Source: Bacteroidota bacterium (GTDB lineage Bacteria > Bacteroidota > Bacteroidia > Cytophagales > UBA9547). From it: DNA of 64,000 nt. The translations under genes were made by a program, and so were the position numbers. The notes beneath the pieces were generated by a model. The model did no database searches. It was not told where the DNA came from and worked only from the letters and a program-made list of their open reading frames with translations. The stretch lies in the NCBI GenBank assembly GCA_041191405.1, contig JBEEOW010000001.1, positions 3,001 to 67,000 of the forward strand. Direction: 5' to 3'. Shown here in pieces: positions 10,707 through 63,963 of the stretch (the first letter of the stretch is position 1; every line of letters starts with the position of its first letter).

Positions 10707-10770
10707 AGCGAAAAATATACTTTACAGTTGCTGAGCGTAGTCGAAGCATTAGTAAAGTATATTTTTTGCT
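10707..10770. repeat. Nested-palindrome intergenic repeat, single unit (family 2, unit A)
   Basis: agcgaaaaatatactttac | agttgctgagcgtagtcgaagcattag | taaagtatattttttgct. ~19-bp inverted arms surround a conserved ~26-nt loop. Confidence 0.8.
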
Positions 10771-10790
10771 AAATTATTAATTTTAATTTA

Positions 10791-11306
10791 TTACAAACTT
10801 AAAATATAATCAGCAGCAGCAGCTAAGTCAGCAACTGAAGCATCAGCATAAGAACTTGGTTTCTGATTATCAACTAAAATAGATTTTATTCCCAATGATT
10901 TTGAAGGAACTAAATCTCTTTCTTTGTCGCCAATCATCCATGAATTTTCAGTATCAACATTGTATTTAGCTATCGCTCTTTCAAACATTAATGAACCAGG
11001 TTTGCGAGACAATGATTTGTGCTTACTCTCGTGAAAGGGTGCAAGGTAAATATCGACAATTGCATTGTTACAATCTTTTTGCACAGCTTCATGAACCAAC
11101 ATCACATCTGCTTCGGTATAAATTCCTTTGGTAATACCTGATTGGTTGGTAATAATTATCAATAAATATCCTGCATTTTTTAGTCTAATCAATGCATCAG
11201 AAACGCCCGGAAGGATGGTTAATTTCTCTAAAGAATATACATAATCCACGTAATCTTTATTGATTACTCCGTCTCTATCTAAAAATATACATTTATTTTT
11301 TGCCAT
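10791..11306 (-). CDS. gmhB: HAD-family D,D-heptose 1,7-bisphosphate phosphatase-like (GmhB-type)
   Basis: 171 aa. IFLDRDGVINKD (DxD nucleophile motif), IITNQSGI, and GDKERD. Confidence 0.72.
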   Translation of the reverse strand: MAKNKCIFLDRDGVINKDYVDYVYSLEKLTILPGVSDALIRLKNAGYLLIIITNQSGITKGIYTEADVMLVHEAVQKDCNNAIVDIYLAPFHESKHKSLSRKPGSLMFERAIAKYNVDTENSWMIGDKERDLVPSKSLGIKSILVDNQKPSSYADASVADLAAAADYILSL

Positions 11307-11356
11307 TTTTCATAATTTTTACAAACATAAATCATACTTTGCAAATTACAGTAATG

Positions 11357-11364
11357 TACCTTTG
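11357..11364 (+). promoter_or_regulatory. Candidate Bacteroidota -7 box (TAnnTTTG) for hemY
   Basis: TACCTTTG lies 24 nt upstream of ATG 11388. The only upstream TTG is at non-consensus spacing. Confidence 0.3.
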
Positions 11365-11384
11365 TAATTAATTAAAATCTTTTT

Positions 11385-12692
11385 GTGATGATAGCAATTA
11401 TTGGCGCTGGAATTTCGGGTTTATCCTTGGCTTATTTCCTTCAAAAAAAAGGAATTGAATATGTATTATTAGAAGCAAGTAACAGAGTTGGTGGATTAAT
11501 AAATACTTCTTTTATAGATGGTTATACCCTCGAAACTGGTCCGAATTCGATTTTATGTAATGCTGAATTGACTTTATTTTTACAAGAAATTGGTTTGGAA
11601 AAAGATATTATTCAACCTGTTGAAATAAGTAAAAATAGATTTATTTTTAAAGAAGGTAAATTAAGAAAATTGCCATCTAGTCCACTAAACTTATTTTTGG
11701 GCAGTTATTTTAATTGGGAAACCAAAAAGAAAATTTTTAAAGAATGGAGTTTGGGTGCAATTGAAAATCAAAACCCAACAGAAACTATTGCACAGTTTTT
11801 TGAAAGAAGATTTAATAAAGATGTAGTTGATTACGCAGTTCAACCATTTGTAAGTGGAATTTATGCGGGTGATGCTAACAAAATTTTAGTAAACAAAGCA
11901 TTTCCTCAATTACAAAAAATGGAAAAGCAGTATGGTTCAATACTTAAAGGTATGATGAAAGAAGCTTCGGGAAACAGAAAAAAATCATTAAACTTTAAAA
12001 ACGGTATGGAGCAATTGCCTTTGGCTTTGGCATCTAAATTAAAAAATGTTCATTTAAATACTTCTGTAAAAAATATTACCCAGTCGGGCGATGGATTTGA
12101 AATAGTTACGCCTTCTCAAACATTTACTGCTAACAAAGTGGTGTTGTCAATACCAAGTTACACTGCTGCTGATTTACTGATAAGTATTGACCCAGAGATT
12201 TCAACTGCATTAAACAGAGTGAATTATGTAACAAATTCTGCTGTTTATTTAGCTTATAAAAAAGCTGATGTTGGTTTTAAATTAGATGGTTTTGGAAGTT
12301 TAAATCCTGCAAAGGAAAATAGATTTACCGCTGGAACTATCTGGACATCAACTTTATTCCCTGAAAGATGTAAATCTGATGAGGTATTATTAACTTCATT
12401 TATTGGCGGTGCTTTACAAGGAGAACAAGCGAGTTTGCCGGATGAAGAATTGATACAAAACACGCATCAAGATGTAAAAGAAATTTACGGAATTACAGGA
12501 AATCCAGTGTTTACGCATGTAAAACGTTGGTCACAAGCTATTCCGCAATATGATAGAAATATTTTGGAAGTAGAAAAATTTATTCCAAGATTACAGCGTC
12601 GCCAAATATATGTAAATGCCAATTGGAACGAAGGCGTATCGCTTGGCGATTGTATTGAAAAAAGTAGAAAGTTGGCTGAAGAGTTTAATTGA
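11385..12692 (+). CDS. hemY: Protoporphyrinogen/coproporphyrinogen oxidase, FAD-dependent (HemY type)
   Basis: 435 aa. N-terminal dinucleotide fold IAIIGAGISGLSLAYFLQKKG...LEASNRVGG. The start is GTG 11385 or ATG 11388. Confidence 0.8.
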   Translation: MMIAIIGAGISGLSLAYFLQKKGIEYVLLEASNRVGGLINTSFIDGYTLETGPNSILCNAELTLFLQEIGLEKDIIQPVEISKNRFIFKEGKLRKLPSSPLNLFLGSYFNWETKKKIFKEWSLGAIENQNPTETIAQFFERRFNKDVVDYAVQPFVSGIYAGDANKILVNKAFPQLQKMEKQYGSILKGMMKEASGNRKKSLNFKNGMEQLPLALASKLKNVHLNTSVKNITQSGDGFEIVTPSQTFTANKVVLSIPSYTAADLLISIDPEISTALNRVNYVTNSAVYLAYKKADVGFKLDGFGSLNPAKENRFTAGTIWTSTLFPERCKSDEVLLTSFIGGALQGEQASLPDEELIQNTHQDVKEIYGITGNPVFTHVKRWSQAIPQYDRNILEVEKFIPRLQRRQIYVNANWNEGVSLGDCIEKSRKLAEEFN

Positions 12693-61526: not shown

Positions 61527-62492
61527 TTACTTTTTACAATGTTTTTCAATCATTTTGCTTGCTTCTTTATACTCAAGTTCTAATGCCCTTTGAAAATCAA
61601 TACAAGCTTCATCTTTTTTGTTAAGTTTAATTTTTGATAAACCTCTATTGTAGAATGCTAAATTAAATGAATCATCAATGAGAATTGCTTTGTTAAAATC
61701 TTCGATAGAACCTAGAATATCATTTGATTCAAGCTTTACTTCACCTCTTAAATTGTAATAATTGGGATTTTGCGGGTTTAATCCAATAGCAATATTCAAG
61801 TCATAAAGTGCTTTATCTAAATCTTTCATTTTTATATATGTTATTGCCCTATTATTAAAAGCTTTTGGATTTTTTGAGTTAATTTCAATTGATTTAGAAT
61901 AGTCTAAGATAGCTCATGTATAATCGTTTAGTTCACATTTTACAATACCTCTATTTGTATAGTTTTTGGCGTCATTAGGTGCCAACTCTATCGCTTTGTC
62001 AAAACATATTTTAGCATTTAAGTAATCATTTAAAATCATATTAATATTTCCAAGATTATTATAAGATGATTTATCTTTTGGATTTAATTTAATTGCATAA
62101 TTGAAATTTGAAATTGCAGAATCAAATTTTTCGATTATTCTGTAAGCAACACCTCTATTATAAAAATAATTTCCATCGTTAGGGTTTAATTTAATAGCTT
62201 TTGAATAATCAATAATAGCACCTTCAAAATCTTGGTATGCAGCTTTTGATACACCTCTATTATAATATAAAATTGAATTGCTTGAATCTAGTTTTATTAT
62301 TGAGTTATAATCTTCAACAGCTCCATAATAGTCATTTATACTTTCTCTATATCGAGCTCTATTGAAAAGAATTTCTGTTAATTTGGTTTCACTTTTAACT
62401 ATCATTCCCCAAGTTGAATCTGGAGCTGAATTTACTTGTGCATTTGAATACACATTAATTGCTAAAAATATATATATGTAAAGGTATTTCAT
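61527..62492 (-). pseudogene. TPR-repeat secreted protein interrupted by a single in-frame TGA (track ORFs 61914-62492 and 61527-61829)
   Basis: Both ORFs are in the same frame. Reading through TGA 61914-61916 gives continuous TPR sequence ...GIVKCELNDYT*AILDYSKSIEINSKNPKAFNNRAITYIKMKDLDKALYDLN... Confidence 0.6.
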
Positions 62493-62900
62493 CGTAATTA
62501 TAGTTTTATAAAAATGGAAATGTTTTATAATATCTTAGTAATCTACTTTATAGCTACTAATGTTCTGGAAATTTTGAAATATCTATATAAATATCCTTAG
62601 ATTCTGGTGTTATATTGATAACTATTTGCTTTCCTATATTGATATTTTAATATTATTTATCTTTCTACAATTATACAGTTTAAAACTTAACTTCCAAAAC
62701 TACCAATTAAACTTTCCAATTTTTGCTACATACTTTTTTTCAAAAATTTATTACACTTAAACTCTACTTAAAATCAATTTTTTTTGCGTAATTGTAACCA
62801 AATAGCAGTTTTAACTGTAAAAGCTAAAATGGTATAAGAAAACTGATATTTGTCATTAAATACAGTGATAAGCCTCAAAAAATAGTACTTTGCAAAGAAT

Positions 62901-62908
62901 TAACTTTG
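62901..62908 (+). promoter_or_regulatory. Candidate -7 box (TAnnTTTG) for the usp gene
   Basis: TAACTTTG lies 43 nt upstream of ATG 62951. Confidence 0.3.
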
Positions 62909-62950
62909 TAAAAATTAGATAAAGAACCTTATATTAACAATTTAGATACT

Positions 62951-63838
62951 ATGGAAAAGATTTTAATTCCTACCGATTTTTCTCTAACAGCAGAGAAAGC
63001 TTACAAATTAGGAGCTGAAATAGCTCGTAAAACTGAAGCTGAGATTATATTGTTACACATTATTCCTACGTTTGTTCGTAAAGGTTTGGCTATTACAGGT
63101 TTAATTGACCCAACTGTAGGAAATAATGATGAAGAAATTAGTATTGCTAAAGATATTTTAGCAAAATTAGTTAGTAAAGATGTTTTTGCTGGAGTGAAGG
63201 TTTCTACAGAACTTATTGAAAAAACTAATGATGATATTCCAACTACTATTACTAGATTTCAAACTGATGAAGAAATTGATTTAATCGTTGTTGGTACTGA
63301 TGGTGCTCGTACTAGTCGCAGAAACTATACGCCAATTATTGTTCGTCAAGCAAATTGCCCTGTAATTAGTGTAGACCAAGAGCCAGAAACTTTCACTTTG
63401 AAAAACATGGTTCTTGCTACTGATTTTGTAAATACAAATTACAAAATGATGGATAACGTATGGAATTTACAACAATTGTTTGAAGCTAAGTTGACGATTC
63501 TTTATGTAAATACTCCTCATTATTTCAAAGATACTCAGAAAATTGAAAACGAATACAACTTGTTTGTAAATCGTTATGAGTTAGATAACACAGAGTTAGC
63601 AGTATTTAATGACCATATTCTTGAAGATGGAATTTTGAAATATGCAGAAAGAGTAAGTGCTGATATGTTGTTAATGTCAACACATGGTCGTACTGGATTA
63701 TCTCACTTATTTAGCAAAAGCCACGCTGAGTATGTAGTTGGTCACTCAAAAGTGCCAGTATATGTTTACAATATGCACATGGACGAATTATATAACTATG
63801 TTGTATCAGGTTCAACAGGTGGTTTTACAGGAGTTTAA
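62951..63838 (+). CDS. Tandem-domain universal stress protein (UspA family)
   Basis: 295 aa. KILIPTDFS...LLHI in both halves, and the C-terminal ATP-binding-type motif MSTHGRTGLSHLFSKS. Confidence 0.85.
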   Translation: MEKILIPTDFSLTAEKAYKLGAEIARKTEAEIILLHIIPTFVRKGLAITGLIDPTVGNNDEEISIAKDILAKLVSKDVFAGVKVSTELIEKTNDDIPTTITRFQTDEEIDLIVVGTDGARTSRRNYTPIIVRQANCPVISVDQEPETFTLKNMVLATDFVNTNYKMMDNVWNLQQLFEAKLTILYVNTPHYFKDTQKIENEYNLFVNRYELDNTELAVFNDHILEDGILKYAERVSADMLLMSTHGRTGLSHLFSKSHAEYVVGHSKVPVYVYNMHMDELYNYVVSGSTGGFTGV

Positions 63839-63849
63839 TTAGTTTATAT

Positions 63850-63963
63850 TCGCAAAATATACTTTACCGTTGCTAAGCGTAGTTGAAGTATTTGCAAAGT
63901 ATATTTTGCGATTTAAAATGTATTTGAAAACTGTCACAGCGTTTATCAAAGTGTATGTTTTCG
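63850..63963 (+). repeat. Nested-palindrome repeat, diverged composite copy (family 2)
   Basis: tcgcaaaatatactttac|cgttgctaagcgtagttgaagtatttg|caaagtatattttgcga followed by a degenerate unit B ...gaaaactgtcacagcgtttatcaaagtgtatgttttcg. Confidence 0.7.

Follow-up and report, generated by a model that had tools for sequence, protein, structure and literature searches.

Five intergenic loci of a Bacteroidota genome carry palindromes nested within one another around a short conserved centre, and this centre appears in either orientation relative to its partner unit. They lie on a 64,000-nt stretch of a member of the Cytophagales (assembly GCA_041191405.1, contig JBEEOW010000001.1, positions 3,001 to 67,000; hereafter the window, numbered from its first base). 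We asked what the centre is and why it seems to flip. A first-pass annotation of the window had described an intergenic palindromic family resembling repetitive extragenic palindromes (REPs) or miniature inverted-repeat transposable elements (MITEs), and this description was borne out. The family is of that known kind, and its conserved centre is a covarying, insertable hairpin of 22-23 nt, here called the module, that occurs across phyla. We hold with moderate confidence that the window family is a lineage-specific REP/MITE-like composite whose hairpin apices carry a very small, non-autonomous mobile element that acts as a single-strand hairpin.

The conserved centre is a covarying hairpin

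The module has the consensus 5'-GGT-NNN-TGAGC-(YT/GNA)-GTCGAA-N'N'N'-3'. Its helix consists of three freely covarying pairs, a U-A pair, a tandem G.A/A.G step, a G-C pair and a C-G pair closing a loop of two or three bases, together with a bulged pyrimidine (5'-GGT-NNN-U-[G.A]-[A.G]-G-C-(YT/GNA)-G-(U)-C-..-A-N'N'N'-3'). In an alignment of 110 sequences from many phyla, the proposed helix was 96.8% paired. The three outer stem pairs had each undergone 24-45 double changes and occurred as U-A, C-G, G-C, A-U and G-U. This level of covariation was reached by none of 500 shuffles, and pairing fell to 31-52% when one strand was slid against the other. Stem mismatches on the TGAGC...GTCGAA (GA) strand were G.T in 14 cases and A.C in 3, which identifies it as the folding strand. 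The 5' GGT was kept in ~70% of modules (68-72% where the search did not impose stems), and its would-be partner was 48% paired. The first-pass annotation had called this centre a loop and proposed it as the recognised part; the sequence is indeed constrained, but it is itself a base-paired hairpin rather than a loop.

Among the core matches in the genome loci listed, the two-base loops were YT (CT 92, TT 60), and 46 of the 55 three-base loops were GNA, with any base at N (GGA 14, GTA 12, GAA 12, GCA 8). C-YT-G two-base loops are a feature of DNA and are sterically poor in RNA. The context 5'-YGAR-3' favours sheared G.A pairs, and both G.A steps of the module lie in it. A C-G-closed GNA loop on a G-C pair defines the extraordinarily stable DNA mini-hairpin GCGNAGC, for which GNA alone works (PMC13037366, PMC3201870). 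The module apex, GC-GNA-G(T)C, fits this definition and adds a bulged T after the closing G. One form of the module as a DNA oligonucleotide is d(GGTTGCTGAGCGTAGTCGAAGCA), and another has the CT loop. By nearest-neighbour folding, the bare module reaches -1.3 to -3.5 kcal/mol (z ~0), so that canonical stability does not explain its conservation.

The module is shared by distant phyla

We scanned one genome per species for the exact pattern TTGCTGAGC-N2-3-GTCGAAGCA and obtained at least 119 loci. The genome matches listed came from Bacteroidota (many orders), Spirochaetota, Fibrobacterota, Actinomycetota, Cyanobacteriota, Chloroflexota, and Alpha- and Zetaproteobacteria. The module is near letter-identical in at least six bacterial phyla, usually with several copies per locus. 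Carriers range in G+C from 30% (Cytophagales) to 70% (Microbacterium); across this range, the 13-16-base apex and the 5' tag are near-constant and the stem covaries. The bare core TGAGC-N2-3-GTCGAA had 226 matches in the 0.9 Mb of genome loci listed, and 98 of these carried stems outside the search pattern (CCC/GGG, CAC/GTG, CGC/GCG, CAG/CTG, TGT/ACA), where ~1 was expected by chance. Some single matches were coding coincidences, namely acidic Ala/Pro linkers (PVAEPVEAP) in high-GC genomes and a SprB-type repeat, GASTGSAT, in locus L119.

A variant, CCGTTCGCCCTGAGCTTGTCGAAGGGCGAACGG, known from spurious alphaproteobacterial open reading frames (ORFs), was found by BLAST in 54 plasmid records, unannotated there and at up to 22 places per Sphingobium megaplasmid. 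Its plasmid carriers include Sphingobium, Comamonas, Moraxella, Sinorhizobium, Methylobacter and others. A scan of viral contigs for GGTNNCTGAGCYTGTCGAAG gave at least 120 loci, the richest of them holding 13 cores, and records of cultured phages had matches at chance level only. The highest density seen was on a 25-kb viral contig, IMGVR_UViG_3300001765_000109 (loci L180 and L185), with 25 modules; nearly every intergenic gap there holds pairs in reverse-forward order, of stem classes CGG and GCC and often less than 10 nt apart. In locus L108 (1490-2620), a unit of ~265 nt is repeated five times in tandem, each with a forward-reverse module pair tagged GTC instead of GGT. The 5' tag GTC(T/C) also occurs in Cellulophaga, Flavobacterium, Hymenobacter and other loci, and the modules that bear it suggest a second subfamily.

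Layout of the five window loci

The window loci hold nine copies of the module, two of them decayed. Direct reading and a covariance model of 31 positions, trained mostly on copies from other genomes, confirmed all five loci where the first-pass annotation had placed them. On the 64-kb window, the model recovered all seven intact modules at 19-38 bits and no further significant copy, a decayed one at 63865-63896 scoring 9 bits. A degenerate loop pattern matched the window four times against 0.02 expected by chance, and repeat-finding also recovered the family, as direct and inverted repeats.

Unit A has arms of 17-19 nt, (AG)CGAAAAAT..ACTTTAC and GTAAAGT..ATTTTTCG(CT), around the centre GGTTGCTGAGC-N2-3-GTCGAAGCA-TTA. 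In unit B, arms CGAAAAC / GTTTTCG enclose GGTCACTGAGC-N2-3-GTCGAAGTG-TWA. A and B are two stem classes of one module. The composites are bounded by outer arms, or terminal inverted repeats, CCAGCGAAAA / TTTTCGCTGG, extended in related copies to AATAGTCC / GGACTATT; the trailing CTGG given earlier for unit B in fact lies inside this longer arm. The claim that the loop is better conserved than the arms is marginal in the window, where mean pairwise identity is 0.87 for the loop and 0.83 for the arms (0.93 vs 0.86 with the decayed copy left out), and it became strong only with the data from other genomes.

Copy 1 (10707-10770, plus strand) is a single A unit with arms at 10707-10725 and 10752-10770 and the TTA at 10749-10751. 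Its module (10726-10748, plus) is of the A class with a GNA-type loop, GTA, and reads AGT-TGC-TGAGC-GTA-GTCGAA-GCA (model match 10723-10754, 31.3 bits, E 1.3e-7). As DNA, the copy folds at -16.1 kcal/mol (z -6.1). Of the convergent genes on either side, that for a DegT-type aminotransferase ends at 10703 and that for a HAD hydrolase at 10791.

Copy 2 (16183-16299) is an inverted doublet, A(R)-linker-B(F), where F and R denote forward and reverse orientation. It comprises A arms at 16183-16201 and 16227-16243, a linker hairpin at 16244-16256 and B arms at 16257-16263 and 16289-16299. The A module (16205-16226, minus) is GGT-TGC-TGAGC-TT-GTCGAA-GCA (match 16199-16229, 38.2 bits) and the B module (16264-16285, plus) is GGT-CAC-TGAGC-CT-GTCGAA-GTG (match 16261-16291, 36 bits). 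The whole doublet folds as DNA into one long hairpin of -32.9 kcal/mol (z -9.2), 50 nt upstream of the start of an HtrA/Do protease gene at 16349. Independent short-read assemblies of the same organism all end inside it (window 16244 and ~16211), and this repeat limits the contiguity of public assemblies.

Copy 3 (17854-17975) begins 9 nt past the HtrA stop codon and is a direct doublet, A(F)-linker-B(F), followed by a separate canonical terminator-like hairpin at 17995-18031. Each of its modules has one core change: GATC for GAGC in A (17873-17894, plus; match 17870-17900, 24.9 bits) and TAAGC in B, which has a GTA loop (17939-17961, plus; match 17936-17967, 24.3 bits).

Copy 4 (40185-40302) repeats the copy 2 arrangement in reverse complement, as the inverted doublet B(R)-linker-A(F), with 91% complementarity over 95 nt. 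Its B module (40199-40221, minus) is GGT-CAC-TGAGG-GTA-GCCGAA-GTG (match 40193-40224, 19.2 bits) and its A module (40259-40280, plus) GGT-TGC-TGAGC-AT-GTCGAA-GCA (match 40256-40286, 36.6 bits). A 2OG-Fe(II) oxygenase gene follows 50 nt after the copy, and the groEL terminator (40390-40430, minus strand) has the copy on its downstream side. The arrangements of copies 2, 3 and 4 agree with the earlier description.

Copy 5 (63851-63963, previously given as 63850-63963) begins 12 nt past the stop of a universal-stress-protein gene. It is present as described, as an A(F)-B(F) doublet, but decayed in both units. Its A module (63868-63890, plus) reads CGT-TGC-TAAGC-GTA-GTTGAA-GTA and scored 9 bits. 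The heavily decayed B module (63932-63953, plus), TGTCACAGCGTTTATCAAAGTG between TGAAAAC and GTTTTCG arms, was read directly and was missed by the covariance model.

Taken together, three of the five loci start 4-12 nt past a stop codon and two lie ~50 nt 5' of a start codon. Annotations place the best-matching HtrA homologues in Cytophagales or Cytophagaceae, and even the nearest is only 77% identical. We sought orthologous empty sites for the window copies, and the nearest relatives, 70-77% identical in HtrA, were non-syntenic. The closest sampled relatives of the organism had no modules in 32 kb in total.

Either orientation fits inside palindromic arms

Of 506 strict-core modules, 282 were solitary. 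The 132 adjacent pairs comprised 63 in tandem (F>F), 45 in R-F order with the GGT ends inward and 24 in F-R order. Stem class differed between the partners in 64 of the 69 inverted pairs and was common to both in 34 of the 63 tandem pairs. An outer helix of at least 7 bp accompanied only ~8% of modules, where a shuffled control gave 3.5%; the notion that the module always sits at a hairpin apex was rejected on this count. Since few modules elsewhere have an outer helix, the long arms of the window family are a local elaboration.

A metagenome scan for GTCGAAGCATTAGTAAAG gave six more composites, bringing the A units to 11. Seven are inverted doublets B(R)-linker-A(F), as in copies 2 and 4; two are A(F)-B(F), like copies 3 and 5; and two are A alone, like copy 1. 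The inversion of the A loop relative to B is therefore the common form and no exception. A variable arm position covaries (TATAC/GTATA, TAGAC/GTCTA, TAAAC/GTTTA), with T.G wobbles and no A.C. Pairing between the A and B modules folds the inverted doublet into a single long hairpin of -33 kcal/mol as DNA (z ~-9).

Without its module, unit A becomes ...ACTTTAC-TTA-GTAAAGT..., a plain hairpin with a three-base loop. The TTA lies 3' of the module on the module's own strand in both orientations, which is what whole-unit inversion, or insertion on either strand of the palindrome, predicts. Arm mismatches do not discriminate between whole-unit inversion and a loop-only flip (2 vs 2). Since the arms are palindromic, a module or unit in either orientation gives the picture of a flipped loop, and the "flipped loop" is simply a module or unit in the other orientation inside palindromic arms. 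The first-pass annotation had likewise preferred insertion in either orientation, and no special flip mechanism is needed. Copy 4 was identical in three independent assemblies from different samples, and a contig that ends in copy 2 has the orientation of the window; the assemblies compared showed no loop-orientation heterogeneity at copies 2 and 4.

Modules interrupt genes and differ between close plasmids

In a PF01555 DNA methyltransferase (locus L106, 7139), seven extra codons, exactly 21 nt, lie in frame (...AVMDLNAAD-ASTGSAT-GGNRKYICVQLPE). These codons, GCTTCGACAGGCTCAGCAACA, are the reverse complement of TGTTGCTGAGCCTGTCGAAGC. The seven residues are absent from 35 of the 40 best homologues, and four others have ASTGSAQ, ASAGSAQ or ASTGLAQ. 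ASTGSAT also interrupts a C-terminal sorting domain of the type IX secretion system (T9SS; L099, 6249), and it occupies one shared position in two HsdS-like proteins (L022 1932 and L098 3952), with the boundary after LFESYLQGVF. Module translations in real ORFs were ASTGSAT, VAEPVEA, SLSKH/G and LRQAQ. On Sphingobium megaplasmids, a block of ~145 nt with an F-R doublet is present downstream of htpG in two strains and absent in two.

No target-site duplication was seen at the Sphingobium filled/empty junction or at the 21-nt in-frame insert, and the flanks of the five window copies have no direct repeat in common. Orphan 5' halves lie upstream of full modules (46 vs 13) and orphan 3' halves downstream (36 vs 15). 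Directional truncation, of the kind left by target-primed reverse transcription, was rejected because the two kinds of orphan occur to an equal extent; the symmetric pattern fits slippage rather than one-ended synthesis.

The module is not linked to any gene

Among intergenic modules in loci of at most 55% G+C, 34 were co-oriented with both flanking genes and 39 opposed, with a further 18 between convergent and 9 between divergent genes. The module is without orientation preference relative to genes. All-against-all clustering of ORFs from the 119 genome and 120 viral loci listed gave no recurrent neighbour protein family tied to the module; the recurrent clusters in the viral loci represent one phage family with a shared locus. 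No T run follows the modules. We ruled out that they are intrinsic terminators, given this lack, the canonical terminators adjoining copies 3 and 4, and the absence of orientation bias.

Mobile element, host RNA element or REP

Under the reading that we prefer, the module would fold and be recognised as a single strand, more likely of DNA than of RNA, and a trans-acting activity would recognise it by the invariant apex together with the 5' GGT. Each composite hairpin carries the module at its apex, usually within an inverted A/B doublet. The data show the structure of the module, its distribution, its insertion and its independence of genes; beyond these we infer a single-stranded, probably DNA, stage and an activity supplied in trans. 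DNA is favoured by the loops, both types of which are classic mini-loops of DNA, and by the 5'-YGAR-3' context of the two G.A steps.

Several observations weigh against this reading. No target-site duplication or recent, datable insertion was seen. The tests of neighbouring ORFs and of RAYTs (REP-associated HUH Y1 tyrosine transposases) found no mobilising enzyme: phmmer with IS200 TnpA had no match among 3,001 + 4,373 module-adjacent ORFs, and none of five RAYT homologues from module-carrying phyla had a module within 3 kb. The bare-module fold is weak by nearest-neighbour rules, its stability resting on non-canonical pairs outside the model of the tool. The choice of DNA as the more likely strand is argued from structural literature and general knowledge. 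Selfish repeats are seldom conserved letter by letter across phyla, and a conserved function in the host could account for the pattern instead. Finally, the consensus of the small RNA (sRNA) family RF02901 holds the doublet, so at least some copies are transcribed.

A host function in RNA is a serious rival, to which we give a modest chance. The module would then be a host-selected cis-acting RNA element, such as a 3'-UTR (untranslated region) stabiliser, a terminator helper or a site for a conserved RNA-binding protein; it would be kept across phyla because its partner is universal, and would multiply only incidentally. The start of three window copies 4-12 nt past a stop codon suits such a role, as does the G.U-type mismatch asymmetry, which fits folding of one strand. 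A conserved apex on a covarying stem is typical of protein-binding RNA hairpins, and RF02901 was defined by RNA-seq. However, the modules show no orientation bias (34 same, 39 opposite), and nine lie in divergent regions. Ordinary terminators adjoin the elements, and the dominant two-base YT loops are sterically poor in RNA. Modules also lie in frame within ORFs and are absent there from most homologues, their presence differs between close plasmids, and the nearest sampled relatives lack them in 32 kb.

A bolder extension of the mobile-element reading, equally tentative in our view, would make the module a self-contained replicator of a new kind. Such an element would need no dedicated transposase, and its DNA mini-hairpin, resistant to single-strand-binding protein, would exploit universal replication and repair machinery. 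It could spread, for example, when a primase or polymerase switches templates at single-stranded gaps. Reliance on such universal machinery would account for an apex frozen across phyla and a stem left free to vary. If true, this would be the smallest class of mobile element known, common to most bacterial phyla.

We see only a slim chance that the module belongs to a REP/REPIN system moved by a RAYT, with GGT in the role of the GTAG tag and the inverted doublet as the replicating form. The anatomy fits: an imperfect, bulged hairpin comes after a conserved 5' trinucleotide, and inverted doublets, which are frequent (R-F 45 and F-R 24 of 132 adjacent pairs, and 7 of the 11 lineage composites), fold into a single long hairpin. 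Cyanobacteriota, Chloroflexota, Gammaproteobacteria and Cytophagales have RAYT homologues, and homologues of E. coli RayT were found on plasmids of Kovacikia, Gloeocapsa, a Chloroflexota bacterium, Methylomonas and Bernardetia. Yet the five RAYT homologues had no module within 3 kb and no Y1 protein was found near modules; in these tests the TnpA(REP)/IS200-like partner suggested by the first-pass annotation gained no support. The core is constant across phyla, whereas REP sequences are normally species-specific (PMC3116915). The inverted partners, of different stem class in 64 of 69 pairs, are unlike those of REPINs, and the 282 solitary modules and the 21-nt in-frame insert indicate that a single module can be the inserted unit.

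That the central segment flips in place, by intramolecular recombination or hairpin-templated repair between the arms, and so has a switchable orientation, is very improbable. Arms of 17-19 bp are long enough to recombine, their mismatches are as compatible with a loop-only flip as with whole-unit inversion, and assemblies break inside copy 2. These breaks are, however, explained by a repeat longer than the word size of the assembler, and the agreement among assemblies at copies 2 and 4 speaks against flipping. The inverted doublet is standard in the six further metagenomic copies, and no invertase gene was seen near any window copy.

The weakest alternative, an ordinary decaying, lineage-restricted REP/MITE without a preferred loop whose matches in other phyla are chance or coding coincidences, keeps next to no credence: some matches are coding look-alikes (the PVAEPVEAP linkers and the SprB-type GASTGSAT of L119) and by our own estimate ~35 chance matches to an 18-base pattern are expected in 596 Gb, but the 98 cores with other complementary stems in the same 8-kb loci (~1 expected), covariation far above all controls, clusters of up to 13 copies per locus and the recovery of the independently chosen CCGTTCGCCCTGAGCTTGTCGAAGGGCGAACGG in Sphingobium, Comamonas, Moraxella and Sinorhizobium have already refuted it.

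Significance

REP, MITE and small dispersed repeat (SDR) families are normally private to a species or genus, which is usually read as co-evolution with a private transposase. A cross-phylum apex implies either one widely shared recognising activity or a physical constraint of the DNA mini-hairpin. The practical consequences are broken short-read assemblies, inserts of seven residues in real proteins and contamination of sRNA families defined from RNA-seq. The module also seeds spurious ORFs: peptides of the VAEPVEA, SLSKG, PFDKLR and ASTGSAT type are its translations, and many of the spurious short ORFs in public annotation are probably due to them. With the covariance model, host range, copy-number dynamics and the partner gene become directly testable.

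Other features of the window

The window has a G+C content of 30% and no tRNA genes. Its genes include T9SS components, the Do/HtrA protease, an ammonium transporter, groES/groEL, SbcC and other housekeeping functions. An SbcC/Rad50-like ATPase (46886-50494, minus; AAA_23, SbcC_Walker_B) is followed by an ORF of 403 aa (50503-51714, minus) that may be SbcD. A nuclease of the SbcC type, which acts on hairpins and palindromes, is thus encoded in a genome where long nested palindromes persist.

Imperfect 7-nt tandem arrays occupy intergenic positions 6589-6673, 12874-12944, 24937-24993, 35086-35184 and 54552-54622, with further heptamer arrays at 24184-24255, 39326-39510, 12692-12724 and 53638-53684. 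The types are AACTCTA/AACCCTA (like the plant telomere repeat CCCTAAA), GTGAAAA/GTGAGAT and AGTTTTC/AGTTGTC. Seven is by far the commonest short period in related loci, with 0.23% of bases against at most 0.05% for periods of 6, 8 and 9. Modules often abut heptamer arrays in the Bacteroidota loci L036, L058, L083, L088, L091, L015, L049 and L259. A link between the two was rejected, the enrichment being weak (2.7% vs 0.7%, six cases, against a control that included non-intergenic DNA).

The Rfam family Acido-Lenti-1 matches at 12749-12795 (plus strand) with 37.3 against a gathering threshold of 37, in a 300-nt intergenic region with several small G+C-rich hairpins and heptamer arrays on both sides. 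Direct repeats in 43331-44191 (282 nt at 91% and 157 nt at 90%, spaced by ~420 nt) span three short overlapping minus-strand ORFs (42543-43373, which has no Pfam match, 43370-43792 and 43789-44091) and look like a tandem gene duplication. A palindromic sequence of 37 nt, TTTACGGTTGACAAGGTTTGCAACCGTTGTCAACATG, occurs twice between two genes (56394-56430 and 56501-56537; 107 nt apart, 95% identity) and looks like a putative paired operator or binding site.

Comparison with known systems

The gathering-threshold scan of the window against Rfam gave only Acido-Lenti-1, away from the repeats, and the module has no counterpart among the families of Rfam 15. When the elements and eight rich loci were scanned by E-value, the matches were to generic miRNA-type hairpins and, below threshold, to RF02901; matches to RF02353 (BjrC68) were generic and lacked the motif. 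RF02901 (AaHKsRNA41, Aggregatibacter sRNA 41) is a 187-nt, single-genus sRNA model, and its consensus has the inverted doublet as GCUGAgCUUGcCGAAGCA ... UUCGgCAAGcUCAgC; the window scored 12.7 bits against it and Sphingobium (L125) 36.6, with a gathering threshold of 97. A search of the accessible literature for the core as DNA and RNA strings (both loop types) and for its translations gave no match. The UGAG/CGAA tandem G.A step occurs in domain II of the hammerhead ribozyme; only this step is shared, without a CUGANGA turn, a three-way junction or an Rfam match, and we rejected the likeness. Compared by eye, tRNA arms, SECIS, K-turn, boxB, the Tn3 inverted repeat, domain V of group II introns and 23S rRNA fit over at most 6-8 letters and were rejected as well.

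Rickettsia palindromic elements (RPEs) and other MITE-like repeats such as Correia and ERIC resemble the module in being palindromic and able to land in frame within genes, where they add a peptide. RPEs, however, are 100-150 nt long and genus-specific, whereas an inserted module can be 21 nt, with no target-site duplication seen. At 60-135 nt, the window composites fall in the size range of MITEs and have terminal inverted repeats, but no target-site duplication was seen. In contrast to IS200/IS605 ends and PATEs, which have two co-oriented subterminal hairpins and a Y1 tnpA in the family, no Y1 tnpA was found among the ORFs adjacent to modules.

The REP/BIME and REPIN-RAYT systems of E. coli and Pseudomonas (PMC3116915) share with the module short imperfect palindromes, a conserved 5' tag, an intergenic and multi-copy occurrence, a frequent pairing into inverted doublets that fold into a long hairpin and a position close to gene ends. 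They differ in the tag (GTAG, against GGT) and in being species-specific, whereas the module has one core across phyla. Module doublets differ from REPINs in joining partners of different stem classes, and single modules insert too, even in frame within genes. The SDRs of Nostoc punctiforme, compared here by description, are also close in size, insertion-like behaviour, lack of an encoded protein and nesting in larger repeats. They were described as "very small mobile repeated elements" of 21-27 nt (Elhai et al. 2008, as summarised in PMC5861425 and PMC3116915). The account in PMC5861425 reports them only from heterocystous cyanobacteria, with SDR5 tied to HIP1; the module, in contrast, spans many phyla.

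At the level of structure, the closest parallel is the DNA mini-hairpin d(GCGNAGC) (PMC13037366, PMC3201870), which has the same C-G-closed GNA loop at its apex. Such mini-hairpins mark primase-dependent single-strand origins (G4, RSF1010 ssiA) and N4 promoters. The module differs from them in its bulged pyrimidine and alternative YT loop, and in occurring as hundreds of dispersed chromosomal copies rather than at an origin or promoter.

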